A stretch of 64,000 bases of DNA from assembly GCF_988242995.1 (NCBI RefSeq), contig NZ_OZ547043.1; one strand, 5' to 3'. Position 1 is the first letter of the stretch. Each line of letters starts with the position of its first letter. Under the pieces are notes generated by a model. The model was not told where the DNA came from and did not search any database. It saw only the letters and a list, made by a program, of their open reading frames with translations. This document shows positions 9,752 to 56,660 of the stretch, piece by piece. A program made the translations under genes and the position numbers.

Positions 9752-11000
9752 GGGAGTTCTACCGCAGGGGCGGGGAATTCTAAGTGATATCCATCATCGC
9801 ATCCAGTGCGTCCGGTTTATCCCCGCTGACGCGGGGAACACGCTTTTCCCCACGCGTCCAGATCTTCGACTGGCGGTTTATCCCCGCTGGCGCGGGGAAC
9901 ACTCATTAAATTGTTTTTCCCGATCCCAGCTCTGCGGTTTATCCCCGCTGGCGCGGGGAACACCTGGAGCGCAGAAAGTTTGATATCGAAAATGCCGGTT
10001 TATCCCCGCTGGCGCGGGGAACACAGTTAACAACCCGCGCCGAACAAGCCCGACAACGGTTTATCCCCGCTGGCGCGGGGAACACCAGGTTCGTAAAGGT
10101 GAACACGGCACGACGGCCGGTTTATCCCCGCTGGCGCGGGGAACACGCGTCGCCATTCTATTAGCTTTTCCTCATCACCGGTTTATCCCCGCTGGCGCGG
10201 GGAACACCCGACAATCTCCGCCTCCAGTCGGTCGACCTGCGGTTTATCCCCGCTGGCGCGGGGAACACTGTGCCCGACTGCGTGCCGCGTCGAGCGCCTG
10301 CGGTTTATCCCCGCTGGCGCGGGGAACACTTCGCCGCCATCATCCTGTGGTGCCAGTTGACCGGTTTATCCCCGCTGGCGCGGGGAACACATACCGCAGC
10401 AAATTACGGTTCCAGAAACGCGCGGTTTATCCCCGCTGGCGCGGGGAACACTGACACGTTAAACGGTGCGTTGTCGTCGCTGTCGGTTTATCCCCGCTGG
10501 CGCGGGGAACACCCTGCCGCCCCCTTTAGCCCATATGGGGGCGGCGGTTTATCCCCGCTGGCGCGGGGAACACTTCAACATTACGAAACGGGATCACGCC
10601 GCTGACGGTTTATCCCCGCTGGCGCGGGGAACACCGGCTCCGCGTCGACATAAAAGTCCTCGGGATCGGTTTATCCCCGCTGGCGCGGGGAACACATATT
10701 TCGCCCCGTCACGCTGAATCAGCCAGCCGGTTTATCCCCGCTGGCGCGGGGAACACTCGCTTTTAAAGCGCCGGAGGAAAGTAAGCTCCGGTTTATCCCC
10801 GCTGGCGCGGGGAACACTAGCATAAATTACCCGATCAGATCGCGGACATCGGTTTATCCCCGCTGGCGCGGGGAACACTCGATCAAAAATTTACAACCAA
10901 AGGCTTCAACCGGTTTATCCCCGCTGGCGCGGGGAACACTCCCCGGTATCAGAAATAATTCCCTGCTCGATCGGTTTATCCCCGCTGGCGCGGGGAACAC
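9752..11000 (-). CRISPR. CRISPR array, type I-E repeats, 21 repeats and 20 spacers
   Basis: 29 bp repeat CGGTTTATCCCCGCTGGCGCGGGGAACAC with exact 61 bp period, starts at 9813, 9874, ... 10972; all spacers 32 bp. Repeat at 9813 has one mismatch (CTGACGCG). A degenerate terminal repeat sits at 9752-9780 (about 19/29 matches). Leader is on the right, so crRNA is read on the minus strand. Confidence 0.98.
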
Positions 11001-16958: not shown

Positions 16959-19658
16959 TCAACCAACCTTGCCAGTCAATCCTTCCATAGCCGAATACCC
17001 GCAACTTTCGTCATCGGTAACTAAAATCACGTTTGCCATCTCCGGATCTTTCCGCTGTTCAATGCACCACTGCCTGAACGCTTCCCCTTCCAGTAAAGAA
17101 AACTCATCCCGATGTTTTTTCCACCAGCTTCGACGCACTCTGACAACGCTCATTTCCCATGCGTGAGCACCGTTGGCATAAGGCTTCACCACACTGGCAA
17201 TACAGGTAGCCAGCCACAGGGAAACAGACTCCTCCGCCAGACGTGTCGACAGCTTTTCCGGAAGGTAATCGTTGATATTGGCGGCATAGCCAGGCCTGAA
17301 GTTCAGCACAAACTTTTTAGCCATTGCGCGATCGCAGTAATATTTGCCCACTTGCTCCTGCTCGCTGCGGGCAAATCCTTCCGGCATTACCACGTCCTCA
17401 CCGTAGACTGATTCAATAAGAAGGCGGGCTGCGTGTGGCATTTGAATAGCGCCTTGCTCACGCAGTACACGCTGCGTCAGCCAGATTCGTCCATGATCGG
17501 GATAGACATATGCACTGTTACGCATGGCACTGCCGAACCATTCGTCACCTGGAGCGTCGTCCCAGACGGGGGCCAGAATCAGCAATTCAGGAGGGGAACG
17601 CTCGTCTTTTCCGTCACGCTTTAACTGACCATTAATATCGCGGATATGCCGCTGTAATCGCCCCGCTCGCTGGATCAGCAAATCAACAGGGGCCAGGTCG
17701 GAAATCATTTCGTCCATATCGCAATCAACGCTCGACTCTAAGACCTGAGTACAAATGAGGACTTTTCCGGCACGCTGTGAGCTATCTTCTTTACCGAAGC
17801 GTGCCAGCGTTTCCGTTTCAATTCGCTGGCGATCGCTAAAAGCAAAGCGGCTATGAAACAGAGAAAGGCTGGAAGCAGGAATGACGCCGCGGGCAAGCAA
17901 CTGACGATAAACCTTAATAGCGTCATCGACAGAATTCCGGATCCAGGCGATGCATTTCCCCTGACTTACTGCCGATTCGATACGCGCAATACATTCTTGT
18001 TCGCTATGAAGCCAACCCACGCTCACGCTACGCTCAACGTCTTTGCGCGTCGCTACCCGGTGTGAATGCACATCGGATTTCGTAACGTGCGTCAGCCAGG
18101 GGTAATCATCCTTTTCCAGGAACGGAGCTTCTTGCTGGCCCTCTGTACCACGCGCAAAGGCAGCAACGAGTTTGTCGCACTGCTGTTGAGATAACGTGGC
18201 AGAAAGCAAAATGACGCTGTTTCCGCCACGCGCCTGCCGCTCGATCAGCCCTTCAAGAATGCATGACATGTAAGCGTCACAGGCATGGATCTCATCAGCC
18301 AGCAGGATTTTGTTACTCAGTCCCAGAAGCCGCAGATTATTATGTTTGAACGGCATCACAGCCATCATCGCCTGATCCAGCGTGCCGACGCCAATTTCAG
18401 CCAGTAGCGCCTTCTTGTTACTGTCGGCAAACCAGGCCGCACATCCCTGACTGAACGTTTGTTCATCCGGTTCTTCTGACCCGACTAAATCACCGGACCA
18501 GAGTGATTCATTAAAGCGGTCCATTAATGTTCGGGCACTGTGTGCCAGCACCAGGCTGGGGCGGGACTCTGGCGAATAGAAAGCAAGCCAGGTTTTGACC
18601 AGTCGATCGTACATGGCATTGGCCGTTGCCATTGTTGGCAGGCCAAAAAACAAACCCTGCGCTTTACCCGCAGCCATCAACCTGTGCGCCAGGATAAGCG
18701 CCGCTTCCGTTTTACCTGCGCCAGTCACATCTTCCAGAATAAATAACTGTGGCCCTGGCTGGCTGATATCCAGATCCAGCACCTTTTGCTGTAACGGTGT
18801 CGGATTCTCAATAAAAGGAAACAGCGTATTAATTCCGGTGAAAGGCGCGACTTTTGCTTTTAGAGGAAAGACGGTTAAGGCGTTTTGAGCCTGAACTAAA
18901 GTTTTCTGCCAGTAACCTTTATTATCCATTGGGTGTGCGACGCGTGGAAAAAATCGCGTTGACGAACCCGTCCAGTCTGCGAGCACGACGGTTGCAGAGA
19001 TATACCAGGAAAGGTGTTTTATAAGTTCAATGCCCTCATCATCATCCCAGAATGCGGGGATCTCTATGAGCGGAAACAGTGGTTTGATTTCAAGAAGAAA
19101 ATCTCGCGCGGCAGCTTTGTCTTCAGGCAGAAAATTATCCAGTTCATCAATACGGTCAGGCGGGCGACCATGATGCCCGGTAGTTATGGGCATCCACATC
19201 GCTATTACACGTGTAAGTTTGCGGGGAGAGAGTGAAGAGGAAGGAAGTAACTCCTGACATTCACTTAAATAATGATGCCACAACCAGTAGCCCAGCGTTG
19301 AATGAGAGATTTTTTCGTAATTTTTTCTAGCACCTTCCGGAACCCTGAGTTTCGGGTGCAGGTAAAGTTGCTGAAATGAGCGGGCAAATTTACCAGTATC
19401 GTGCCAGCACAACAACCAGGCGAAAAATTGAGCCGCCTGTTCCTTGTCAGAAATCTCTAATTGACGAAAATAGTCAGCCAGTCCGAAGCAATTGCTTTTA
19501 ACCATTAAATAGCCCATCGCGGCTACATCCAGCGAATGCCAGCAAAGAAGGTGATAGTCGTCGCCCCCGTCTTTCTCGCCGCGTCGGGTTTTTCCCCAGA
19601 AATCAAAAAAAGTCACAATATTTTTATCCTTCAGTAAACTTAAAGGATATTTACGCAT
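16959..19658 (-). CDS. cas3: Cas3 HD-nuclease/helicase
   Basis: ORF track 899 aa with N-terminal HD region and DEAD/DEAH helicase motifs; only 91 bp upstream of casA. Confidence 0.93.
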   Translation of the reverse strand: MRKYPLSLLKDKNIVTFFDFWGKTRRGEKDGGDDYHLLCWHSLDVAAMGYLMVKSNCFGLADYFRQLEISDKEQAAQFFAWLLCWHDTGKFARSFQQLYLHPKLRVPEGARKNYEKISHSTLGYWLWHHYLSECQELLPSSSLSPRKLTRVIAMWMPITTGHHGRPPDRIDELDNFLPEDKAAARDFLLEIKPLFPLIEIPAFWDDDEGIELIKHLSWYISATVVLADWTGSSTRFFPRVAHPMDNKGYWQKTLVQAQNALTVFPLKAKVAPFTGINTLFPFIENPTPLQQKVLDLDISQPGPQLFILEDVTGAGKTEAALILAHRLMAAGKAQGLFFGLPTMATANAMYDRLVKTWLAFYSPESRPSLVLAHSARTLMDRFNESLWSGDLVGSEEPDEQTFSQGCAAWFADSNKKALLAEIGVGTLDQAMMAVMPFKHNNLRLLGLSNKILLADEIHACDAYMSCILEGLIERQARGGNSVILLSATLSQQQCDKLVAAFARGTEGQQEAPFLEKDDYPWLTHVTKSDVHSHRVATRKDVERSVSVGWLHSEQECIARIESAVSQGKCIAWIRNSVDDAIKVYRQLLARGVIPASSLSLFHSRFAFSDRQRIETETLARFGKEDSSQRAGKVLICTQVLESSVDCDMDEMISDLAPVDLLIQRAGRLQRHIRDINGQLKRDGKDERSPPELLILAPVWDDAPGDEWFGSAMRNSAYVYPDHGRIWLTQRVLREQGAIQMPHAARLLIESVYGEDVVMPEGFARSEQEQVGKYYCDRAMAKKFVLNFRPGYAANINDYLPEKLSTRLAEESVSLWLATCIASVVKPYANGAHAWEMSVVRVRRSWWKKHRDEFSLLEGEAFRQWCIEQRKDPEMANVILVTDDESCGYSAMEGLTGKVG

Positions 19659-19852: not shown

Positions 19853-20005
19853 CTACTTCTTCGATTCGTAAGCGAGAACTGCCTTAAACTCCATACCACG
19901 TTCTCTGATACTCAACTCACACAACGAGTCGCCTACCATCAGCGTGAATCCCAGTACTGTACAACACAGTACGATGATTGCCACAAGGGCATATTTTGTC
20001 AGCAT
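19853..20005 (-). CDS. Hok/Gef-family type I toxin (HokE-like), 50 aa
   Basis: Hand-translated minus-strand [53 protein letters not shown]: one TM helix then the Hok signature (SLCE...IR...AYES). GGGAGG Shine-Dalgarno 6 nt upstream. Not in the ORF track (below size cut-off); the 84 aa plus-strand ORF 19796..20050 is its antisense. Confidence 0.7.
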
Positions 20006-20270
20006 GTCTTGCCTCCCTGCAAAGAAGAGACTAACATTCGAATTGCTTAGGTTCGAACGCTGGCCTCAGGTTGATAGAAATATCGCCTGGGGCTTTTGTC
20101 CATCTGGAACCTCGCGAATGCTTAACGCCAGACAGCCTCAAGCACCCAACGCCATTCTATACTTGATAATTCTTCCAGCGGCGTTCACGTTTAAAATCAG
20201 GAATGCTGCTCGCAAAATAAAAACGCCCCCATCTTTTCAGACAGAGACGTTTATTAAGCGGTACGATATT

Positions 20271-21005
20271 TTACCCTTCGTGCAGCCCACATTCCCTTTT
20301 TAAGCCAAAGAAACGCGTTTCTTCTTCCGCCATGCCGGGTTCCCATTTACGGGTTGTATGGGTATCACCGACGGATAAATATCCTTCGTCCCATAATGGA
20401 TGATATTTCAGGCCATGTTTTTGCAGATACTGATATATCGTTCGGTTATCCCAGTCGATAATCGGCAGCACTTTAAATACGCCACGCTGAATTGCCAGCA
20501 CCGGTAAATTGGCGCGACTGCCGGATTGTTCGCGGCGCAGGCCAGCAAACCACGTTTGCGCATTCAGTTCTTTCAGCGCCCGGTTCATCGGTTCGACTTT
20601 GTTGATGTCATTGTACTTTTCAATGCCTTCAACACCCTGCTCCCACAGTTTGCCGTAGCGCGCTTCCTGCCAGGCGGCGCTTTCGGTAGCGCGGTACACT
20701 TTCAGGTTGAGCTTGAGTTTGTCCGTTAACTCGTCAATAAAGCGGTAGGTTTCCGGGAACAGATAACCCGTATCGGTCAGGATCACCGGGATATCCGGGT
20801 GAATCTGATTCACCAGATGCAGGCTCACCGCCGCCTGAATGCCGAAACTGGAAGAAAGTACATATTCACCGGGCAGATTATCCAGCGCCCAGGCAACGCG
20901 GCCTTCAGCATCCAGTTTTTCCAGTTCGGCGTTAGTTTCTGCCAGCGCCAGAATGCGATCTACCTTCGGCAGTTCGTTCAGGGCGTTTAGATCGAGTTTG
21001 GACAT
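20271..21005 (-). CDS. cysH: Phosphoadenosine phosphosulfate reductase
   Basis: ORF track 20271..21158; start trimmed to [14 protein letters not shown] (244 aa) because the upstream extension runs through the REP element and cysI stop. Confidence 0.92.
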
Positions 21006-21026
21006 AGATTCCTCACTGTTTGCCTT

Positions 21027-21063
21027 GCCTGATGCGACGCTCACGCGTCTTATCAGGCCTACA
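21027..21063. repeat. REP (repetitive extragenic palindromic) element between cysI and cysH
   Basis: GCCTGATGCGACGCTCACGCGTCTTATCAGGCCTACA, the classic REP palindrome. Confidence 0.85.
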
Positions 21064-21078
21064 AGACCGGGCTGATGG

Positions 21079-22791
21079 TTAATCCCACAAATCGCGCGCC
21101 GGATCGAGCACCGGGCGAATGATGCCCGCACGCACCGTAAAGTCGCCGAAGCCTTCACCCGCTTCGCGCTCTTTCGCCCAGCGCCCTATCAGTTCATCAA
21201 GCGACGCCAGGATTTCCGGCTCGGTGATGTTTTCTTTATACATCCGTGGGATACGTGTCCCAATGCGGTTGCCGCCAAGATGCAGGTTGTAGCGACCCGG
21301 CGCTTTACCCACCAGGCCCACTTCCGCCAGCATCGCGCGACCACAACCGTTCGGGCAGCCTGTTACACGCATCACGATATGCTCATCGCTGACACCATGT
21401 TTCGCCATTAAATTATCGATGTTGTCGATAAAAGACGGCAGGAAACGCTCGGCTTCGGCCATCGCCAGCGGGCAAGTCGGGAATGACACGCAGGCCATTG
21501 AGTTTTCACGCTGCGGCGTGACGGCATTCATTAACCCGCTCTCTTTGGCGATCTTCTCGATCTTCGCTTTCTCGCTTTCCGGCACACCGGCGATGATCAG
21601 ATTCTGGTTCGCCGTAATGCGGAAATCACCTTTGTGGATCTTCGCGATCTCCAGCAGGCCAGTTTTCAGCGGACGCCCCGGATAATCAAGGATGCGACCA
21701 TTTTCGATAAACAGCGTCAGGTGCCAGTTATCATCAATGCCCTTAACCCAACCAATACGATCGCCGCGTCCGGTAAACTCATACGGACGGATCGGTTCAA
21801 ATTTGATCCCCGCGCGACGCTCCACTTCCGCTTTAAACGTCTCAACCCCCACGCGCTCCAGCGTGTATTTGGTTTTGGCATTTTTACGATCGGTACGGTT
21901 ACCCCAGTCGCGCTGAGTCGTCACGACGGCTTCTGCCACCGCCAGCGTATGCTCCAGCGGCAGATAACCAAACTCACTCGCCGTGCGGGCGTAGGTTTTC
22001 TTGTTGCCGTGCTCGATGGAAAGCCCACCGCCCACCAGCAGGTTAAAGCCCACCAGCTTGCCGTTTTCGGCGATCGCCACGAAGTTCATGTCGTTGGCGT
22101 GCAGATCGATATCGTTCTGCGGCGGGATCACTACCGTGGTTTTGAATTTACGCGGCAAATAAGTCTGACCGAGGATCGGTTCTTCATCGGTGGTGGCGAC
22201 TTTTTCCTGATCGAGCCAGATCTCCGCATACGCGCGGGTACGCGGCAGCAGATGTTCAGATATTTTCTTCGCCCATTCATAGGATTCCGCGTGCAGCTGC
22301 GACTCGTAAGGGTTCGAGGTACAGAGTACGTTACGGTTCATGTCGTTGGCGGTAGCCAGCGCATCAAGACCGACTGAGTGCAGCATCTGGTGCACCGGTT
22401 TGACGTTCTTTTTCAGAATGCCATGGAACTGGAACGTCTGGCGGTTGGTCAGGCGAATGCTGCCATAAATGGTGTTTTCACCGGCAAATTTATCGATCGC
22501 CTGCCACTGTTTGGTGGTAATCACCCCACCCGGCAGACGACAGCGCAACAGCATTGCATGACGTGGCTCCAGCTTCTGTTCAGCACGTTCAGCGCGGATG
22601 TCGCGGTCATCCTGCTGATACATGCCGTGGAAGCGGATCAGCAGGAAGTTGTCGCCCTTAAAACCACCGGTCAGACCGTCGTTTAAATCTTCCGCAATGG
22701 TGCCGCGCAGGTAGTTGCTTTCAAGCTTCATGCGCTCGGCGTCTGTCAGTTTTCCTTCGACCACTAAAGGCCCTGGATGTTTTTCGCTCAT
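21079..22791 (-). CDS. cysI: Sulfite reductase hemoprotein beta subunit
   Basis: ORF track 570 aa with siroheme/Fe-S cysteine cluster region. Confidence 0.95.
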
Positions 22792-24590
22792 TAGTAGACA
22801 TCTCGCTGATAACGGCGCTCTACGCGCAGCTCACTTAAAAATTCATCCGCCGCTTCGGTGTCCATGCCACCAAATTCGGCAATCACTTCCAGAAGTGCCT
22901 GCTCAACGTCTTTCGCCATGCGATTAGCGTCGCCGCAGACATAAATGTGGGCACCGTCATTGATCCAGCGCCACAGCTCCGCGCCCTGTTCGCGCAGTTT
23001 GTCTTGTACATAAACTTTTTCTTTTTGGTCGCGCGACCAGGCAAGATCGATGCGGCTCAATACGCCTTCTTTCACGTAGCGCTGCCACTCCACCTGGTAG
23101 AGGAAATCTTCCGTAAAGTGTGGGTTGCCAAAGAATAGCCAGTTTTTACCCGGCGCTTCGTCGGCAGCACGCTGCTGCATAAAGGCACGGAACGGCGCGA
23201 TGCCGGTGCCAGGGCCAATCATGATCACCGGGGTTTCCGGGTTAGCGGGCAGGCGGAAGTTGTCGTTATGTTCGATAAAGACGCGGACTTCACCCTCTTC
23301 TTCCACACGATCCGCGAGGAAGCTGGAGGCACCACCGGCACGGGCGCGGCCTTCCACGTCGTAACGCACCACACCAACGGTAACGTGCACTTCGTTCTCG
23401 ACTTCCGCCTGCGAGGAGGCGATGGAATACAGGCGCGGGGTCAGCGGGCGCAACAGATTAATCAGCGCTTCGGCATCCAGTTGCGCCGGAGAGAAACGCA
23501 CCATGTCGACAATCGGCGTGGTCGCGGCGTAATGCTGTAACTTCGCTTTATCGCCCACCAGCGGCAGCAGCGTTTCGCTGCGGGTAAGCGTGGCATAGTT
23601 CTCAACAATGTTGGCGGTGTTGACGGTCAGTTCGAAGTGCCACTGTAGCGCTTCGTTCAGCGGCAGGGTTTTGCCGTCAACGGTGACAGTTTCATCGCCT
23701 TTCAGCCACAGCAGTTCGACAAGTTCTTTCACCAGTGCCGGATCGTTCTGATACCAGACGCCCAGCGCGTCACCCGGCTGGTAACGCAGGCCCGAGTCAC
23801 CTAAGTCAATTTCGATATGGCGAACGTCTTTTTCAGAGTTACGCCCGGTAATTTTCTGGTTAACAGAGAGGCTCGCCACCAGCGGCGCGTCTTTGCTGTA
23901 CGGGCTGGTGTGGATTTCATTTACCGCGCCAGTAGCGACGGATTGCGAAGGTGCCGCGACAGGCGCACGCGATTTAAGCGCATCAACCACGCGGGCGCGC
24001 CACTCGCTGGCAGCGGCCTGATATTCAACATCGGCATCGACACGGTCGAGCAGGCGTTCACCGCCCAGTTCCGCCAGCTTACTGTCAAAATCTTTCCCGG
24101 ACTGGCAGAAAAATTCATAAGAGCTATCGCCGAGGCTAAACACGGCAAACGCGGTGTTTTCCAGCTTTGGCGCTTTTTTGGAGAACAGGAACTTATGCAG
24201 CGCGACGGCTTCTTCCGGCGGTTCCCCTTCCCCTTGCGTTGACGTCACCACGATGAGCAGTTTTTCGCTGGCGATTTGTTTGAATTTATAGTCGCCCGCG
24301 TTCACCAGCTTAACGTTCAGTTTTGCCGCTAATAAATCATCGCGTAATGCTTCAGCAACCCGGCGCGCATTGCCGGTTTGCGAAGCGGAGATAATAGTTA
24401 TACCCGGCATTTCTGCGGCGGGCGCTGGCGTCGCTGCAAGCGCAGCAGGCTGCTGGTTGAGCACGCCCCAGAAATAGCCAGAAACCCAGGCAAGCTGGGT
24501 GGGAGTTAAATCGGTCGTGGCCGCCTGAAGGCGTGCCAGTTGCTCCGGGTTCAACGGAAGCAACGCGGAAGGTGGGACCTGTGTCGTCAT
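22791..24590 (-). CDS. cysJ: Sulfite reductase flavoprotein alpha subunit
   Basis: ORF track 599 aa, flavodoxin plus FAD/NADPH reductase domains. Confidence 0.95.
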
Positions 24591-24905
24591 GCGTCGTTAT
24601 GTTCCAGTAAGCAAAGCTGTTTCTGCGCCCTGTCAGCGCCCATAAAACAGAAGAGAAGGTAAGGTTAACGGGGTGAACGGTGTGGATTAAAGACGGGATA
24701 GCGATAACTAATAACCAAATCGACTAACCTGTTTTAGCAATAGTCTTTAACAACAAAATAGATTAACCAACCCAATGAAAAACAAATGAATTTAGCCAAT
24801 CATTAAGATAAATCAGCGATTTTGCGCAACAAAGTCGTTTTAGATAATGCGAAAAAACAGCCTTTCCGGTACTCTACGGCGGTTTTATCGTCCTGTAGAG
24901 AAATT

Positions 24906-25271
24906 ATGATGTCCACCACGTTATTTAAAGATTTCACCTTCGAAGCCGCTCACCGCTTACCACACGTCCCGGAAGGGCATAAATGTGGTCGCCTGCACGG
25001 ACATTCCTTTATGGTGCGACTGGAAATTACCGGGGAAGTCGATCCGCATACGGGCTGGATTATCGATTTCGCTGAACTGAAAGCGGCATTTAAACCAACC
25101 TATGATCGCCTCGATCACTATTATCTCAATGATATTCCTGGCCTGGAAAACCCGACCAGCGAGGTTTTAGCAAAATGGATTTGGGATCAGGTTAAACCGG
25201 TTGTTCCGCTGTTAAGTGCGGTTATGGTGAAAGAAACCTGCACCGCAGGTTGCATCTATCGCGGCGAATGA
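24906..25271 (+). CDS. queD: 6-carboxy-5,6,7,8-tetrahydropterin synthase
   Basis: ORF track 24822..25271; start set at [35 protein letters not shown] (121 aa); codon-by-codon check confirms stop at 25269-25271. Confidence 0.92.
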
Positions 25272-25348
25272 TAAGAGTGTGTCGGCGGTCAATTTCCCTT
25301 AAGTAACGCCATGTTAGGGTGTTGTGTTCTGGATATCTGGGGCATGAC

Positions 25349-26620
25349 ATGGAAGACGACTGCGACATTATTATTATTGGTGCGGGTATAGCAGGCACCG
25401 CTTGTGCTTTACGCTGCGCGCGGGCAGGTTTGTCCGTTCTGTTACTGGAACGCGCTGAAATCCCCGGCAGCAAAAATCTTTCCGGCGGGCGTTTATACAC
25501 CCATGCGCTCGCGGAACTCCTCCCGCAATTTCATCTGACCGCGCCTCTTGAACGACGCATCACTCACGAAAGCCTTTCTCTGCTAACGCCGGATGGCGCA
25601 ACGACGTTTTCCAGCTTACAGCCCGGCGGTGAATCCTGGAGTGTATTACGTGCACGGTTCGATCCGTGGCTGGTTGCCGAAGCCGAAAAAGAAGGTGTCG
25701 AATGCATCCCTGGTGCGACGGTGGATGCGCTGTATGAAGAAAACGGCAGGGTGTGTGGTGTCATTTGTGGTGACGATATTCTCCGCGCCCGTTATGTGGT
25801 GCTGGCAGAAGGTGCCAACAGCGTCCTGGCTGAACGTCACGGGTTAGTGACTCGTCCTGCTGGCGAAGCGATGGCGTTGGGGATCAAAGAAGTGCTGTCG
25901 CTGGAAACATCCGCTATTGAAGAACGTTTTCATCTGGAGAATAACGAAGGCGCAGCGTTGCTGTTCAGCGGCGGGATCTGTGATGACTTACCCGGCGGCG
26001 CATTTCTTTATACTAATCAACAAACGCTCTCGTTAGGGATTGTTTGCCCGCTCTCTTCCCTTACGCAAAGTCGTGTTCCGGCAAGCGAGCTGCTGGCTCG
26101 CTTTAAAACGCATCCGGCAGTGCGCCCGCTTATCAAAAACACGGAATCACTGGAGTATGGTGCGCATCTGGTGCCAGAAGGTGGCTTGCACAGTATGCCG
26201 GTGCAATACGCCGGTAACGGCTGGCTGCTGCTGGGCGATGCGTTGCGCAGTTGCGTCAATACCGGAATTTCCGTGCGCGGCATGGATATGGCGCTAACTG
26301 GCGCGCAGGCGGCGGCACAAACGCTGATAAGCGCCTGCCAGCACCGCGAGCCGCAAAATCTGTTTCCGCTTTATCATCACAACGTCGAGCGCAGCCTGCT
26401 ATGGGATGTTCTACAACGTTATCAGCATGTTCCGGCGCTTTTGCAACGCCCTGGATGGTACCGTGCGTGGCCTGCGTTAATGCAGGATATTTCCCGCGAT
26501 TTATGGGATCAGGGTGATAAACCTGTTCCACCGCTGCGCCAGTTATTCTGGCGTCATTTACGTCGTCACGGCCTGTGGCATCTGGCGGGCGATGTTATCA
26601 GGAGTCTGCGATGTCTGTAG
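25349..26620 (+). CDS. ygcN: FAD-dependent ETF-quinone oxidoreductase-like protein (FixC family)
   Basis: ORF track 25319..26620; internal start MEDDCDIIIIGAGIAGTACAL gives a Rossmann GxGxxG N-terminus (423 aa). The upstream alternative start is possible. Confidence 0.85.
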   Translation: MEDDCDIIIIGAGIAGTACALRCARAGLSVLLLERAEIPGSKNLSGGRLYTHALAELLPQFHLTAPLERRITHESLSLLTPDGATTFSSLQPGGESWSVLRARFDPWLVAEAEKEGVECIPGATVDALYEENGRVCGVICGDDILRARYVVLAEGANSVLAERHGLVTRPAGEAMALGIKEVLSLETSAIEERFHLENNEGAALLFSGGICDDLPGGAFLYTNQQTLSLGIVCPLSSLTQSRVPASELLARFKTHPAVRPLIKNTESLEYGAHLVPEGGLHSMPVQYAGNGWLLLGDALRSCVNTGISVRGMDMALTGAQAAAQTLISACQHREPQNLFPLYHHNVERSLLWDVLQRYQHVPALLQRPGWYRAWPALMQDISRDLWDQGDKPVPPLRQLFWRHLRRHGLWHLAGDVIRSLRCL

Positions 26621-26871
26621 CCCGTAATCTCTGGCGCGTTGCCGATGCGCCGCACATTGTTCCGGCTGACTCCGTTGAGCGCCAGACGGTACAACGGTTG
26701 ATTAACGCTTGTCCGGCTGGTCTTTTTTCGCTCACACCGGAAGGTGACTTACGCGTTGATTATCGCGGCTGCCTGGAGTGTGGCACCTGCCGTTTGCTGT
26801 GCGACGAATCAACACTACAACAGTGGCGCTATCCGCCTTCCGGATTCGGCATCACCTACCGTTTTGGATAA
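26611..26871 (+). CDS. ygcO: Ferredoxin-like protein (FixX family)
   Basis: ORF track 26575..26871; start set at MSVARNLW (86 aa); overlaps ygcN end. Confidence 0.85.
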   Translation: MSVARNLWRVADAPHIVPADSVERQTVQRLINACPAGLFSLTPEGDLRVDYRGCLECGTCRLLCDESTLQQWRYPPSGFGITYRFG

Positions 26872-26887
26872 ATAATAAGGATAATTT

Positions 26888-27463
26888 ATGCCCCTCTTAC
26901 ACCTGCTCCGCCAGAATCCGGTGATTGCTGCCGTTAAAGATAATGCCAGCCTGCAACTGGCAATCGACTCTGAATGCCAGTTTATTTCCGTGTTGTACGG
27001 CAATATCTGCACCATTAGTCAAATCGTTAAAAAGATTAAAAATGCCGGAAAATATGCTTTTATTCATGTTGATTTGCTGGAAGGCGCGTCAAATAAAGAA
27101 GTGGTGATTCAGTTTTTGAAACTGGTGACTGAGGCGGACGGCATTATCAGTACCAAAGCCTCAATGTTGAAAGCGGCAAGAGCGGAAGGTTTTTTCTGTA
27201 TTCATCGCCTGTTTATTGTTGATTCAATTTCGTTTCACAACATTGATAAGCAAGTTGCGCAATCGAATCCGGATTGTATTGAGATCCTGCCAGGCTGTAT
27301 GCCTAAAGTGCTGGGCTGGGTGACGGAGAAAATCCGCCAACCGCTGATTGCCGGCGGGCTGGTGTGCGATGAAGAAGATGCGCGTAATGCGATTAACGCA
27401 GGTGTCGTGGCGCTTTCCACCACAAATACCGGGGTCTGGACGCTAGCGAAAAAATTGCTTTGA
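26888..27463 (+). CDS. ygcP: GlpP-family putative transcription antiterminator
   Basis: ORF track 191 aa, recognised as the GlpP-like (glycerol-3-phosphate responsive antiterminator family) protein YgcP. Confidence 0.85.
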   Translation: MPLLHLLRQNPVIAAVKDNASLQLAIDSECQFISVLYGNICTISQIVKKIKNAGKYAFIHVDLLEGASNKEVVIQFLKLVTEADGIISTKASMLKAARAEGFFCIHRLFIVDSISFHNIDKQVAQSNPDCIEILPGCMPKVLGWVTEKIRQPLIAGGLVCDEEDARNAINAGVVALSTTNTGVWTLAKKLL

Positions 27464-27499
27464 CGGGATAATCGTAACGAATTGAATTTGTGTGATTTG

Positions 27500-27609
27500 T
27501 AGGCTGCACGCCACATCCGACATTCAGCGCCTGATGCGACGCTTGACGCGTCTTATCAGGCTTACAAGTCCCCAAGCCAGAACCGTAGGCAGGATCATCC
27601 GGCAGCACG
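27500..27609. repeat. Cluster of REP-type palindromes (BIME-like) between ygcP and ygcQ
   Basis: Central unit GCCTGATGCGACGCTTGACGCGTCTTATCAGGCTTACA (about 27529-27566) flanked by two weaker REP-like units. Confidence 0.7.
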
Positions 27610-28470
27610 TTATTGGCAATCTGCGTGAATGGTTGTCACCAGTGCCTCCAGCACCGCTTTCCAGTCATCAACCACGCCAACATCTGCCTGTGAAAATACC
27701 GCTGCACTGGCGTCATGATTAATCGCCACCACAAACTTGCTATTGCGTACGCCCGCCATTAACGCTGCTGCGCCGGAAGCGCCAACGACAATACACACCT
27801 CAGGTGCCAGCAGATGTCCAGAAATACCAATCACTTTTTCGGCATCAACGCCACCATTCATCACTCGTGCCCGACTGTAGCCCACTTCGGCTCCCAGCTT
27901 TTCTGCCAGCATAGCGATTTCCTGGTTATCTGCCTCTCCGCCCTGCCCCACCACCAGCACCCGTCTGGCCTCAGCTAATGGGTCACGGGTAACATTTTTC
28001 AGATCCTCTGTGCTAACCAGCCAGTCGGGAAGCGCGCCGGGGACAATGTTCAGTTGCTGCATACCAGAGGGCAATGTGGCGTTTTTCACTGCTCCCGCCT
28101 GGCGGGCAAGGGAAAGGCATAGCGGGCGTTTTTCTGTTTGCAGCGTCGCCGTTAGCGCATTTCCCCAGTGGGATTTGCGCACGCTTACGGTTGAAATATC
28201 TAACGAAGTCACCTGGCAGATGCTTGCACCATGTAAACGCCAGGCCAGCCGGGTCGACAGTTCATCACCAAACGTTCCCGGCGGAAAGAGAACAACGTCC
28301 GCTGGCGTTCGCTGCCACTGTTCCACCAGCGCATCCAGCACCTGTTCCGCCACTACGGGCTGAGGTTCAATCTGCCAGTGTGCCAGGGTACAACCGCTGA
28401 AATCCTGTTCTGCCAGCCAGCTCGCTATTGCGGCATTCTCCTGATTTATTGTCACAATTGCGATATTCAT
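27610..28470 (-). CDS. ygcQ: Electron transfer flavoprotein alpha-subunit-like protein (FixB family)
   Basis: ORF track 27610..28503; start set at MNIAIVTINQ (286 aa) to give the usual 4 nt overlap with ygcR. Confidence 0.85.
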   Translation of the reverse strand: MNIAIVTINQENAAIASWLAEQDFSGCTLAHWQIEPQPVVAEQVLDALVEQWQRTPADVVLFPPGTFGDELSTRLAWRLHGASICQVTSLDISTVSVRKSHWGNALTATLQTEKRPLCLSLARQAGAVKNATLPSGMQQLNIVPGALPDWLVSTEDLKNVTRDPLAEARRVLVVGQGGEADNQEIAMLAEKLGAEVGYSRARVMNGGVDAEKVIGISGHLLAPEVCIVVGASGAAALMAGVRNSKFVVAINHDASAAVFSQADVGVVDDWKAVLEALVTTIHADCQ

Positions 28471-29246
28471 GGCTGCATCCTTTGGCGTAAATAGTCCTGC
28501 CATAGCTTTTGCGCTTTTTCTGCTACCGTTTGCCCATCAATCAGCGTCGCTCCGCGTTGTTGCTCTGCTCTTGCCAGTTGCAGACACTGCATCGCTGGCG
28601 ATTCGGCAGCAACAGTTTTACGGATAATTGCTGCTTTCCCCGCCGCCATTCGCTGACGCATTCCCGGTACTGGCAAGGCCACTTCACCGCACTGACGCAC
28701 GGCAATCACCGCAGGCAAGCGAACCCGGCAACAGCGCAGCCCGTTTTCAGTACGCTGTTCGAGGGTGATAAACAGCGCGTCGAGAGTGAAACGCTCCACC
28801 TGGGTGAAGCAGGGCCAGCCCAGCATTTCCGCCAGCAAAAATGGCGTTTGCCCATTCTGCCCTTCGCTGCTTTGGCAGCCGGTAATTATCAGATCCAGCG
28901 GATTCTGACGCTGCCATTCGGCAATATGGCGAGCGACAAATTCCGGCGCAAAGCGCAGATCTGCCGCCGTCTCCAGTAATACAGCTTCCTCAAACCCAAG
29001 AGCCATGAGATAGCGCAGCCAGTGCAACGCCCGTTCATCCCCCATGCTCAACGCGGTTAAAGACATCGACGTACCGTTTTTTCTCTGCGTCAACAGCAGC
29101 GCGGCGGCAGCCTGTTCATCAGCACCGAGTAAACTTCGCAGAAGCGAAACATCCGGTCCGCTATTACCCTGAGCCGCCGCCTGCCACTCTTTTTCCGCCA
29201 GCATTCCGGCATCCGGTTCGGCTTTAAACGCTAACAGAATGTTCAT
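28467..29246 (-). CDS. ygcR: Electron transfer flavoprotein beta-subunit-like protein (FixA family)
   Basis: ORF track 28467..29252 (261 aa); start at first or third Met. Confidence 0.85.
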   Translation of the reverse strand: MNILLAFKAEPDAGMLAEKEWQAAAQGNSGPDVSLLRSLLGADEQAAAALLLTQRKNGTSMSLTALSMGDERALHWLRYLMALGFEEAVLLETAADLRFAPEFVARHIAEWQRQNPLDLIITGCQSSEGQNGQTPFLLAEMLGWPCFTQVERFTLDALFITLEQRTENGLRCCRVRLPAVIAVRQCGEVALPVPGMRQRMAAGKAAIIRKTVAAESPAMQCLQLARAEQQRGATLIDGQTVAEKAQKLWQDYLRQRMQP

Positions 29247-36111: not shown

Positions 36112-36249
36112 TGGTTATCCCCGCTGGCGCGGGGAACATAAGTTCGACAACTTAAAAAATGATAACAAGTCCGGTTTATCCCCGCTGATGCAGGGAACAT
36201 AATAAAAACTTTAACTAGTTCGGTTTATCCCTGTTTTTACAAGGAATAT
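36112..36249 (-). CRISPR. Degenerate CRISPR remnant (3 decayed repeats)
   Basis: TGGTTATCCCCGCTGGCGCGGGGAACAT, CGGTTTATCCCCGCTGATGCAGGGAACAT and CGGTTTATCCCTGTTTTTACAAGGAATAT, separated by 32 bp and 20 bp. Confidence 0.75.
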
Positions 36250-36702
36250 TAACTACACTCGATGTATTTAGAATAAAAGACAATACGAATCGCACTTTAT
36301 CAATTTTCACTTAAAGTATGAACTGGATATCTTTATTCATAAGAACTATTCATCAACAGCGTATAGAGGCGATTATGTAAAACCACTCATTAGCCTCAAA
36401 ACAAAGACAAATTTCCAGATTTATTACTTAATCAATGAATAACAAGCTTAAAAAATACACTGTTATTCTAAAGAAAAAATTAACAGGCATTAATTAATAT
36501 TAAAAAAATAATATGTTAAAATTTCTTAACGGTTTAAGGATTATACAAATAACACTTTGATTAAATTTTATTTTTTGTATCGATAATTGTGAACTTGTCA
36601 TATATGGAGAGCTATTTTGAACATGAGGTGTTACGTGGATATGTTGCTTAATACGAGTACTGCTAATATAAAAACTTGAGAAAGAGATAACGGGTTATAT
36701 GG

Positions 36703-37219
36703 TGGTTTATTCCCGCTGGTGCGGGGAACTCATCAGTGATATCCAACATTGCGGAGCTAAACGCGGTTTATCCCCGCTGGCGCGGGGAACTCAATTAGCC
36801 CGCCTCGCGCGGGTTTTTTTGTGCCGGTTTATCCCCGCTGGCGCGGGGAACTCTTTACTTATCTGCAAATATTTTTTGTCAGCTGCGGTTTATCCCCGCT
36901 GGCGCGGGGAACTCACGAACGCGGCACACCAGGGCGTCTCATCGTCCGGTTTATCCCCGCTGGCGCGGGGAACTCGAACACGACAGGAGTGATAAATGTA
37001 CGCACATCGGTTTATCCCCGCTGGCGCGGGGAACTCGGCTGATAGTGCTTCTGATTATTCGGCGCAAGCGGTTTATCCCCGCTGGCGCGGGGAACTCTAG
37101 GACCCAATATAAAACCGACTGGTTATTTTCGGTTTATCCCCGCTGGCGCGGGGAACTCTTTCAGTCTGGAACACAACGGCGTTAAATAACCGGTTTATCC
37201 CCGCTGGCGCGGGGAACTC
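36703..37219 (-). CRISPR. Orphan CRISPR array, type I-E repeats, 9 repeats and 8 spacers
   Basis: Repeat CGGTTTATCCCCGCTGGCGCGGGGAACTC, period 61 bp, starts 36703 (degenerate distal repeat, 3 mismatches), 36764 ... 37191; 32 bp spacers; leader on the right; no adjacent cas genes. Confidence 0.97.
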
Positions 37220-56249: not shown

Positions 56250-56292
56250 AAAGCAACCTCAATAAGAAAAACTGCCGCGAAGGATAGCAGGA

Positions 56293-56660
56293 ATAAAAAA
56301 AGGGAGCACTGTATTCACAGTGCTCCCGGTTCGTTTCGCAGCATTCCAGCTACTTTTGTTGCTCCCTGCTCATCCTTGACAACTTTTCCTCTGGCCTTGC
56401 GGCCAATCGTTCATCCTGAACTATTGCTTCCTGCTCACACCACCCCGATGTGATACTTCATCCTGAAGTGTCCCTGGCCTTCCTGACCCACCGAATCATC
56501 CTGACCGGTTCTCATTCTCCATCCTGGAGGTGTCCTTTAACGCGTCCTGCGTCATCCTCTTCGCTTCATCCAGAAGCCTTTCCCTGAAACACCATCCTGG
56601 TGTGTCCTTCAGAAGTGTCATCATCCTGATGTTCACTTCGTTGTCTGACTCCCTGTCGAC
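56293..56660 (-). ncRNA. csrB: CsrB small RNA (CsrA-sequestering)
   Basis: Minus strand carries at least 8 CAGGATG-type and about 18 GGA motifs (plus-strand CATCCTG repeats), begins GTCGACAGGGAGTCAGACAACGAAG, and ends with hairpin GGGAGCACTG / CAGTGCTCCC (56302-56327) plus U7. Length about 368 nt, matching csrB. Confidence 0.9.

Follow-up and report, generated by a model that had tools for sequence, protein, structure and literature searches.

The window analysed here (the whole 64-kb stretch of DNA, from a non-K-12 E. coli) almost certainly carries two true REP elements of E. coli, both of the z2 class to judge from their sequence: a solitary unit in the spacer between cysI and cysH (site 1) and the intact unit of a decayed cluster between ygcP and ygcQ (site 2). 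We place the probability of the full explanation, that is, the REP identity together with the roles proposed below for sites 1 and 2, at about 0.8; a specific regulatory role at these two loci, taken on its own, is given somewhat less than even odds. REPs of this type are already known and catalogued in K-12 and these are ordinary elements, as was held when they were called routine: they belong to a common class, and site 2 is listed as REP201 (MG1655 2894809-2894875, corresponding to 27500-27566 of the window), an entry that covers the first two pieces of the site and not the third, a remnant.

Two z2-class REP elements

A degenerate REP consensus search, of the kind that an earlier note on this DNA had suggested, matched both sites and gave no match in 100 shuffles. 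The sites lie 2-3 edits from the z2 consensus, share 92-93% identity with the z2 units that the K-12 REPtron carries, and are almost the same as their K-12 copies. Each has 14-nt arms that are 86% complementary, enclosing a loop of 4 or 5 nt. Folded as RNA, the two intact REPs reach -21.8 to -24.8 kcal/mol (z about -4); the stem bubble is a 2-nt symmetric internal loop on the minus strand in both hairpins, and a 1-nt one on the plus strand of site 2. These two sites are the only significant REP matches within the 64-kb window. Both are extragenic, the cysI-cysH spacer separating tandem genes and the ygcP-ygcQ spacer convergent ones. The gene names cysH, cysI, ygcP and ygcQ were checked and are correct.

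A REP is a small palindromic repeat that is not autonomous; a REP-associated tyrosine transposase (RAYT/TnpA-REP) is thought to spread the copies, which would then decay in place. In E. coli they number about 600 and are defined by an imperfect palindrome with a stem mismatch and a GTAG head (PMC3333891). At megablast stringency, the median number of places matched per genome by REP-containing queries from the window was 2-12. Both sites are like the z2 REP of E. coli (in the nomenclature of Bachellier and Gilson; Ton-Hoang et al. 2012, PMC3333891) in being 36-37 nt long and imperfectly palindromic, with 2 mismatched nt in the stem, and in their extragenic position. The GTAG head is shared by site 1 here and by site 2 in K-12, whereas site 2 here has GTAA. 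The two sites are two further examples of known REP traits, namely abundance, decay in place, lineage variation in copy number and attraction of IS1397. The features are listed in Table 1.

Table 1. Positions in the window of the two REP sites and of neighbouring features.
Feature	Position	Strand	Remarks
Intrinsic terminator, 14-bp stem then TTATTTT	20221..20252	-	Terminator scan
cysI-cysH intercistronic spacer, 73 nt	21006..21078	-	Within the cysJIH operon
False N-terminal extension of the cysH ORF, 51 codons from a GTG start	21006..21158	-	ORF comparison
Extended RNA hairpin, REP stem plus 5-bp GUCUU/AAGGC	21022..21067	-	Folding, -24.8 kcal/mol, z = -4.05
Solitary z2-class REP (palindromic unit)	21027..21062	-	Consensus, similarity, folding
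y-REP remnant GTAGGCTGCACGCCACATCCGACA	27499..27522	+	Head and 3' arm kept, 11 nt of 5' arm deleted; non-palindromic
Intact z2 REP between convergent ygcP and ygcQ	27529..27565	-	Inverted (iREP) on the plus strand
z2 REP loop TTGAC, IS1397 insertion point	27543..27547		
Head-to-head linker AAGTCCCCAAGCCAGAACC	27566..27584	+	Counterpart, by alignment, of the S linker in the K-12 REPtron BIME-2 (..GCCTGAACG)
y-REP remnant GTAGGCAGGATCATCCGGCA	27585..27604	+	Head and tail kept, about 15 central nt deleted

A solitary REP inside the cysJIH operon

A REP had been noted between cysI and cysH at 21027-21063, and consensus, similarity and folding bear this out, with a z2 REP of the sequence GCCTGATGCGACGCTCACGCGTCTTATCAGGCCTAC at 21027-21062. 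Its sequence on the minus strand, which is that of the cysJIH mRNA, is GTAGGCCTGATAAGACGCGTGAGCGTCGCATCAGGC, and the 5' end there is formed by the GTAG head (21062-21059). Its arms (21027-21040 and 21045-21058) enclose a loop of 4 nt and contain an internal mismatch bubble of 2 nt. It differs from the z2 consensus by 2 substitutions, and is 92% identical over 37 nt (E = 1.5e-9) to the z2 REP of the K-12 REPtron, an experimentally studied copy. In E. coli, site 1 is without any REP partner unit; such singletons are a minority arrangement in K-12, where they make up 84 of 584 REPs (PMC3333891). This single-unit form, with its palindrome intact, is found in 5423 of 5426 complete E. coli genomes.

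Both REPs had been described as lying at operon boundaries, which suits the ygcP/ygcQ site and not site 1, since the latter lies in a 73-nt spacer inside cysJIH. The real 3' boundary of this operon is the intrinsic terminator found directly past the cysH stop codon. Site 1 thus corrects the notion of a REP as a mark of the operon end. No promoter-like site was found upstream of cysH, and cysH expression would require RNA polymerase to read through the REP. The element would be transcribed within the cysJIH mRNA and fold into a hairpin of about -25 kcal/mol without a U tract. The extended hairpin begins 11 nt past the cysI stop codon (20 nt for the core REP stem), and the cysH Shine-Dalgarno sequence (GAGG, 21014-21011) lies 7 nt beyond its foot. 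We infer that site 1 most likely hinders 3'-to-5' exonucleases in part, acts as a mild attenuator, or does both, and either effect would favour the cysJI message over that of cysH.

As a hairpin without a U tract between cistrons and just past the upstream stop codon, site 1 is like the intra-operon REPs of malE-malF and hisJ-hisQ (Newbury et al. 1987) and REP325 of yjdM-yjdN (bioRxiv 10.64898/2026.03.23.713779), which are stabilisers or attenuators. It differs from REP325, a multi-hairpin array, in being a single unit, and from the intra-operon stabilisers in having no Term-seq 3' end where its hairpin ends.

A decayed BIME-2 between ygcP and ygcQ

At site 2, a three-unit REP cluster had been described at 27500-27609. 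Three REP-derived pieces are indeed present, but one alone is a palindrome, the other two being remnants, and the last of these ends at 27604, 5 nt from the ygcQ stop codon. The intact z2 REP matches the z2 unit of the REPtron with E = 2.2e-5 and folds on both strands, the plus strand reaching -21.9 kcal/mol and the minus strand -21.8 kcal/mol (z about -4). Where K-12 has GTAG as the head tetranucleotide, the window and strain 2012C-4221 have GTAA; mutations of GTAG abolish TnpA-REP binding in vitro (PMC3333891). Both y remnants retain the head and tail of a y REP (GTAGGC...CATCCGRCA) and are the sole two matches to this pattern in 64 kb, against 0.01 expected. Each has lost 11-15 nt internally, and neither folds (z = 0.22 and 0.01).

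In alignment, the pieces follow the same order as y-z2-y in the K-12 REPtron, and the match extends to GCC[A/T]GAAC of the S linker. By its sequence, site 2 is a decayed BIME-2 made up of a y remnant, a z2 unit and a second y remnant. Like a BIME-2, in which y and z2 REPs alternate and are joined by S and s/l/r linkers, it runs from y (tail-to-tail) through z2 to y (head-to-head, with an S-like linker). It differs from one in that both y units are internally deleted and do not fold, so that it amounts to one and a half units and not a tandem array. With the transcription units ygcNOP and ygcQ... converging on it, site 2 would offer one intact hairpin to transcripts of either strand, most likely as a two-way protector of the 3' ends of transcripts ended nearby by Rho.

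The same REP is also a natural target of IS1397, an IS3-family element specific for the palindromic units of E. coli that has been shown experimentally to insert specifically into REPs (PMC1525189). In strain 103, and in 285 of 5426 complete E. coli genomes (about 5%), the site-2 REP has this element inserted in its loop with a TTGA duplication; insertion in the loop and a duplication of 3-4 bp are both as at known IS1397 target sites. The allele in the window itself is uninterrupted, without IS1397. Decay of both y units, mutation of GTAG in this strain and tolerance of the insertion in 5% of strains all point to weak or absent selection at site 2.

The cysI-cysH spacer across Enterobacteriaceae

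Among 80 species of Enterobacteriaceae, cysI and cysH lie close together in 11, nine having an empty spacer of 15 nt and two one of 33-35 nt, which indicates that the element at this position is dispensable for the operon. The short-spacer species include three Enterobacter representatives, congeners of which carry REPs. Most of the other species have a strong hairpin at the same position, and it is formed by differing repeat families. At least four palindrome families occupy the spacer among the 80 species, namely y/z REPs of the E. coli type, GCCCGG REPs of the Klebsiella/Enterobacter type, CCCTCTC..GAGAGGG palindromes and, in Pluralibacter, a solitary hairpin like the repeat of type I-E CRISPRs. 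The single unit of E. coli corresponds to the three-unit form of E. albertii minus about 100 bp. That the spacer is a selected "hairpin slot", and not merely a tolerant landing site, strikes us as quite improbable. If it were so, unrelated repeats would have been recruited repeatedly and independently, setting the CysJI:CysH expression ratio. Differing repeats at one intercistronic position are a comparative lead, offering a test of whether selection favours REP-like hairpins for tuning expression within an operon.

Transcript ends and alternative explanations

A terminator scan that recovered the cysH terminator found no U tract after either REP hairpin on either strand; the tails past the hairpins are AAGGCAAACAG at site 1 and TTACAAGTCC and GCTGAATGTC at site 2. 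The REPs share with an intrinsic terminator a GC-rich stem-loop at a gene's 3' end and lack its U tract, so that intrinsic (Rho-independent) termination is ruled out at both, contrary to one of the two roles that the earlier note thought likely, mRNA stabilisation or termination. The same scan found no intrinsic terminator at the ygcP/ygcQ boundary. The comparison with transcript 3' ends that had been proposed alongside gave no support either. In the curated list of E. coli Term-seq ends (PMC7815308), none falls in MG1655 2888200-2888399 (site 1) or in 2894700-2894999 (site 2), where the absence says little given the weak expression of the ygc genes. The nearest 3' end, and the sole one close by, is at MG1655 2888409(-), within cysI and 5' of the site-1 REP. 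In vitro, Rho binds (NusG+) at MG1655 2894960-2895053(-), which is on the ygcQ strand and 85 bp upstream of REP201; among the rows of the Rho-binding table that were searched, site 1 has no entry.

Genome-wide, tandem gene pairs that bear a REP have a higher upstream/downstream expression ratio and convergent pairs that bear one show raised expression; terminal REPs do not lengthen mRNA half-life, and the effects depend strongly on context (bioRxiv 10.64898/2026.03.23.713779). On transcripts that Rho has terminated, REPs also serve as a barrier to exonucleases (PMC6061677). A role as stabiliser or attenuator is plausible for the two REPs examined here solely by analogy with such cases.

Against any such role, the repeats might be neutral relics, that is, selfish or hitch-hiking insertions without measurable regulatory effect, kept because the spacers tolerate them. 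The short spacers of the 11 species (the three Enterobacter representatives included), the decay, GTAA head and IS1397 insertions at site 2, the lack of a Term-seq 3' end at either hairpin and the missing half-life effect of terminal REPs all speak for this reading. We nevertheless hold it to be somewhat unlikely, since the single-unit form of site 1 is fixed with its palindrome intact, a strong hairpin is kept at the cysI-cysH position in most species even as the repeat family differs, and REPs are associated with expression biases genome-wide. A second possibility is that the REPs work through Rho, site 1 as an attenuator that partly uncouples cysH from cysJI and site 2 as a terminator of transcripts from both the ygcQ and the ygcP side. 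REPs can act directly in Rho-dependent termination, REP325 being a partially Rho-dependent terminator, and both the Rho-binding site on the ygcQ transcript and the lack of an intrinsic terminator at the ygcP/ygcQ boundary speak for it. However, in vivo 3' ends map to neither site and termination at site 1 must be weak because cysH has no promoter-like site of its own, which leaves this reading improbable.

Control might instead be linked to the translation of cysI. Liang, Rudd and Deutscher (2015) reportedly proposed a model in which a REP close to a stop codon stalls the ribosome, leading to mRNA cleavage and rescue by tmRNA, with a limit said to be 15 nt between REP and stop; at site 1, the outcome would be less CysI. 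The extended hairpin starts within that distance, and the 3' end mapped 20 nt upstream of the cysI stop would fall roughly at the trailing edge of a ribosome on the stop codon, a link that we infer. The core REP stem, on the other hand, lies outside that limit, and processing or an intermediate of degradation would account for the 3' end at 2888409 just as well; we regard this account as very improbable. Even less probable, in our estimate, is a role at the level of DNA and not RNA, in which the repeats bind DNA gyrase (as BIME-2), DNA polymerase I or IHF. REPs and BIMEs have been reported as binding sites of all three (PMC1525189; PMC3333891), whereas site 1 is a single unit and not a y+z2 BIME-2, both y partners at site 2 are truncated, neither a BIME-1-type L linker nor an IHF motif is present, and a recent study found no role in chromosome compaction for a model REP.

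Consequences for annotation

The extension of the cysH ORF had been said to run through the first REP, and it does. The ORF at 20271-21158(-) encodes 295 aa from a GTG start, and the real cysH encodes 244 aa from an ATG at 21005; the 51 surplus codons are stop-free across the REP and the tail of cysI. For annotation, the REPs account for this false extension of cysH as well as for several small spurious ORFs across the ygcP-ygcQ spacer.

Identity of the two REP elements

The window holds two elements of the REP family, which has been described since the 1980s: a z2-class unit in the cysI-cysH spacer (site 1) and a cluster between ygcP and ygcQ (site 2). We put the probability that they are REPs at about 0.97. 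Both have the properties expected of such elements and are real and routine, as the earlier note had held; the consensus scan, blastn-short, the predicted folds and, for site 2, an insertion sequence (see below) agree on their identity. Three corrections to that account are needed, namely: site 1 is intra-operonic, site 2 has one live unit rather than three, and the termination or stabilisation role is not supported by the 3'-end map.

The site 1 element, GCCTGATGCGACGCTCACGCGTCTTATCAGGCCTAC, lies in a spacer of 73 nt and is an imperfect inverted repeat of 14+14 nt with a loop of 4 nt. An edit-distance scan places it 2 substitutions away from the consensus of z2 REPs. In blastn-short it aligns over 37 nt at 92% identity (E = 1.5e-9) with the z2 unit of the K-12 REPtron, a locus with y-z2-y REPs whose z2 unit is the biochemically studied copy (PMC3333891). 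On the mRNA (minus) strand it reads GTAG-GCCUGAU-AA-GACGC-GUGA-GCGUC-GC-AUCAGGC and shows two defining traits of E. coli REPs (PMC3333891), a GTAG head and a mismatch of two bases in the stem. The RNA of this strand folds at -24.8 kcal/mol (z = -4.05). The K-12 copy is the same element with one base more. A degenerate consensus pattern of fixed spacing, which gave no match in any shuffled window, matched site 2 alone, since the loop at site 1 has 4 rather than 5 nt; site 1 was recovered by the edit-distance scan and blastn-short. No REP match was found in the Rfam scan of the window, where CsrB and sok are the sole matches. The RefSeq feature table of NC_000913.3 has no repeat_region features in this region, and a literature search on a REP between cysI and cysH gave no match.

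Features of the window, in window coordinates; gene order is from the annotation of K-12 and strain 2012C-4221, converted
Feature	Position	Strand	Sequence or source
sok antitoxin RNA	19990-20147	-	Rfam, 111.7 bits
Intrinsic terminator	20252-20221	-	14-bp stem, then TTATTTT
cysH	20271-21005	-	K-12 and 2012C-4221 annotation
Mechanical ORF over cysH	20271-21158	-	GTG start, 295 aa
Site 1 z2 REP	21027-21062	
cysI	21079-22791	-	K-12 and 2012C-4221 annotation
cysJ	22791-24590	-	K-12 and 2012C-4221 annotation
queD, ygcN, ygcO	between cysJ and ygcP	+	
ygcP	end at 27463	+	K-12 and 2012C-4221 annotation
Site 2 outer y piece 1	27499-27522		GTAGGCTGCACGCCACATCCGACA
Site 2 z2 REP	27529-27565		GCCTGATGCGACGCTTGACGCGTCTTATCAGGCTTAC
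Site 2 outer y piece 2	27585-27604		GTAGGCAGGATCATCCGGCA
ygcQ	stop codon 27610-27612	-	K-12 and 2012C-4221 annotation
CsrB small RNA, full length	56292-56651	-	Rfam RF00018, 382.9 bits

Site 1 lies within the cysJIH operon

The names cysH, cysI, ygcP and ygcQ used previously agree with the K-12 and 2012C-4221 annotation. Including a 5-bp extension, the site 1 hairpin spans 21022-21067 (about 2888330-2888375 in MG1655); it starts 11 nt past the cysI stop codon and ends 7 nt ahead of the cysH Shine-Dalgarno sequence. A scan of the minus strand found no promoter-like site upstream of cysH, there is no U tract 3' of the hairpin, and an intrinsic terminator is located past the cysH stop codon. Thus, the REP is intercistronic within cysJIH rather than at an operon boundary as had been proposed, and polymerase must pass through it for cysH to be expressed. 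Reading either REP as an intrinsic terminator was rejected, as neither has a U tract.

The mechanical ORF over cysH (244 aa) does run through the REP, as previously stated: its 51 extra codons are stop-free across the element and the last 80 bases of cysI. This GTG-started extension is spurious.

Site 2 is a decayed BIME-2

Between the convergent genes ygcP and ygcQ, a spacer of 146 nt holds three REP-derived pieces. The intact central z2 REP has 1 mismatch to the degenerate pattern and is 3 edits from the consensus; it folds equally on both strands (-21.9 and -21.8 kcal/mol, z about -4). The outer two still have a y-class head and tail. The pattern GTAGGC...CATCCGRCA, which was picked after the sequence was seen and follows the REPtron y units, occurs in the 64 kb only in these two pieces (0.01 expected). 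In the alignment, the cluster is colinear with the y-z2-y array of the REPtron, including part of the short S linker, with 11 internal bases missing from the first y piece and about 15 from the second. The predicted folds of the outer pieces are no more stable than those of shuffled sequence (z = 0.22 and 0.01), and a reading as three classic REP units was rejected on this ground. Of the three-unit cluster described before, the count of REP-derived pieces stands, with a single live palindrome among them. Site 2 is a decayed BIME-2 (an alternating y/z2 REP array) of one live palindrome and two relics.

This site, at least, is already catalogued in K-12: a preprint supplement (bioRxiv 10.64898/2026.03.23.713779) places REP201 of MG1655 at 2894809-2894875, between ygcP and ygcQ, which corresponds to window positions 27500-27566 and spans only the first y relic and the z2 unit. 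In this strain and in 2012C-4221, the head of the z2 unit (window 27562-27565) is GTAA, which is TTAC on the plus strand, as against GTAG in K-12. Since GTAG mutations abolish in vitro binding by TnpA-REP, the REP-associated transposase (PMC3333891), the copy in this strain is probably immobile.

In part of the E. coli genomes, the site 2 query matched only from 27543 on, i.e. from the z2 loop. Strain 103 carries IS1397 exactly in this loop, flanked on either side by a copy of the duplicated loop bases TTGA. A junction-specific query found the insertion in 285 of 5426 complete genomes; the uninterrupted locus is present in 4813. Experiments have shown that E. coli REPs are the specific target of IS1397 insertion (PMC1525189), and hence the cell's own machinery treats the site 2 sequence as a REP, an independent confirmation of its identity.

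Three small mechanical ORFs overlapping the cluster, 27235-27516(-), 27393-27608(-) and 27492-27722(+) (27235-27722 overall), are almost certainly spurious. The ygcQ ORF (27610-28503) exceeds the annotated protein of 286 aa by 11 codons, for a reason unrelated to the REP.

Transcript ends and possible function

The earlier note had ascribed a likely role in termination or mRNA stabilisation to the elements and pointed to transcript 3' ends as a check. The curated Term-seq list for MG1655 in three growth conditions (PMC7815308) has no 3' end at either REP, and the ascribed role, with a U tract lacking at both, is not supported by this map. The sole end nearby, 2888409(-) (window ~21101), is inside cysI, 20 nt ahead of the stop codon, with the site 1 stem about 35-40 nt downstream of this end. 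No unusual structure is found directly upstream of it (z = +0.64). Processing or ribosome-linked cleavage could have produced it, or it could mark a decay intermediate.

REPs elsewhere are exonuclease-resistant hairpins that set the steady-state 3' ends of Rho-terminated transcripts, and some themselves take part in Rho-dependent termination (PMC6061677). At REP325, read-through is attenuated and the upstream yjdM message stabilised; across the genome, a REP goes with a higher upstream/downstream expression ratio in tandem pairs, of which 146 among about 2600 in E. coli have one, and with higher expression in convergent pairs, both with large scatter (bioRxiv 10.64898/2026.03.23.713779). By analogy, the site 1 hairpin would most likely bias expression toward cysJI over cysH, and that of site 2 would most likely serve both convergent transcripts. 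Indirect support for site 2 comes from Rho binding in vitro (NusG+) at a site 85 bp upstream of REP201 on the ygcQ strand. A stabiliser or attenuator role of the two elements is a tentative possibility. That they have no measurable role at these loci is somewhat less probable still; a strong role is disfavoured by the lack of Term-seq ends at both REPs, by half-lives that terminal REPs do not lengthen genome-wide (bioRxiv 10.64898/2026.03.23.713779), by species without any element at site 1 in the 80-species set, and by the decay and interruption permitted at site 2.

A REP hairpin near a stop codon is also said to stall ribosomes, in the model of Liang, Rudd and Deutscher. As a speculative and minor alternative, the site 1 hairpin might do so at the nearby cysI stop codon, which would fit the odd 3' end at 2888409(-).

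The cysI-cysH spacer across species

Spacers were extracted from the cysH loci of 80 Enterobacteriaceae species representatives. Eleven are short, nine having 15 nt (e.g. CCACGAGAGGTAATT), essentially the ribosome-binding site alone, and two 33-35 nt. Among the nine, three come from Enterobacter representatives with REP-bearing congeners: the spacer is empty in L012, L014 and L016, and in L013, L015 and L019 it has one or two REPs and a length of 58-98 nt. Within this genus, spacer REPs have thus been gained or lost over short evolutionary distances. Most remaining spacers have genus-typical REPs, or pairs of them, with a GTAG head, and about ten have a different palindrome, CCCTCTC..GAGAGGG.

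In E. albertii, and in the divergent lineage with the label E. coli SCPM-O-B-8794, the spacer has a three-unit form (z, y, z2), which is found in none of the 5426 complete E. coli genomes. Relative to this form, E. coli proper has a 101-nt gap whose two ends lie in GTAGGCCTGATAAG, a direct repeat shared by units 1 and 3; deletion, or expansion, via recombination between direct REP copies would leave such a pattern. Such variation across species and lineages is known BIME behaviour, as BIMEs vary between strains in copy number and linker (PMC3333891).

In two Pluralibacter representatives, the spacer has a solitary hairpin, GTTCCCCGCG(TA/CT)AGCGGGGATAA(A/G)C (L048, ~1450-1490; L049, 1460-1490), that is almost the same as the type I-E CRISPR repeat. 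Its 7-bp stem, TCCCCGC/GCGGGGA, is that of the CRISPR repeats of the window, and the element is apparently an orphan CRISPR repeat or a member of a repeat family with such an origin.

Genomic neighbourhood

By sequence comparison, the region is E. coli chromosome: a stretch of 701 bp around site 1 matches four complete genomes, 2012C-4221 among them, at 100% identity and is present in 5423 of the 5426. The sok match, directly downstream of the cysH terminator, corresponds to the hok/sok-like locus, which is sokX in K-12 and is represented in other strains by a Hok/Gef family protein. At ~9880-11000 and ~36120-37215 are two CRISPR arrays that have a period of 61 bp and the repeat CGGTTTATCCCCGCTGGCGCGGGGAACAC. 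An 899-aa ORF, 16959-19658(-), occupies the position of K-12 cas3; in 2012C-4221, which matches the window exactly around cysH, the annotation from iap to cysH lists no cas genes, and thus the neighbourhood differs between strains.
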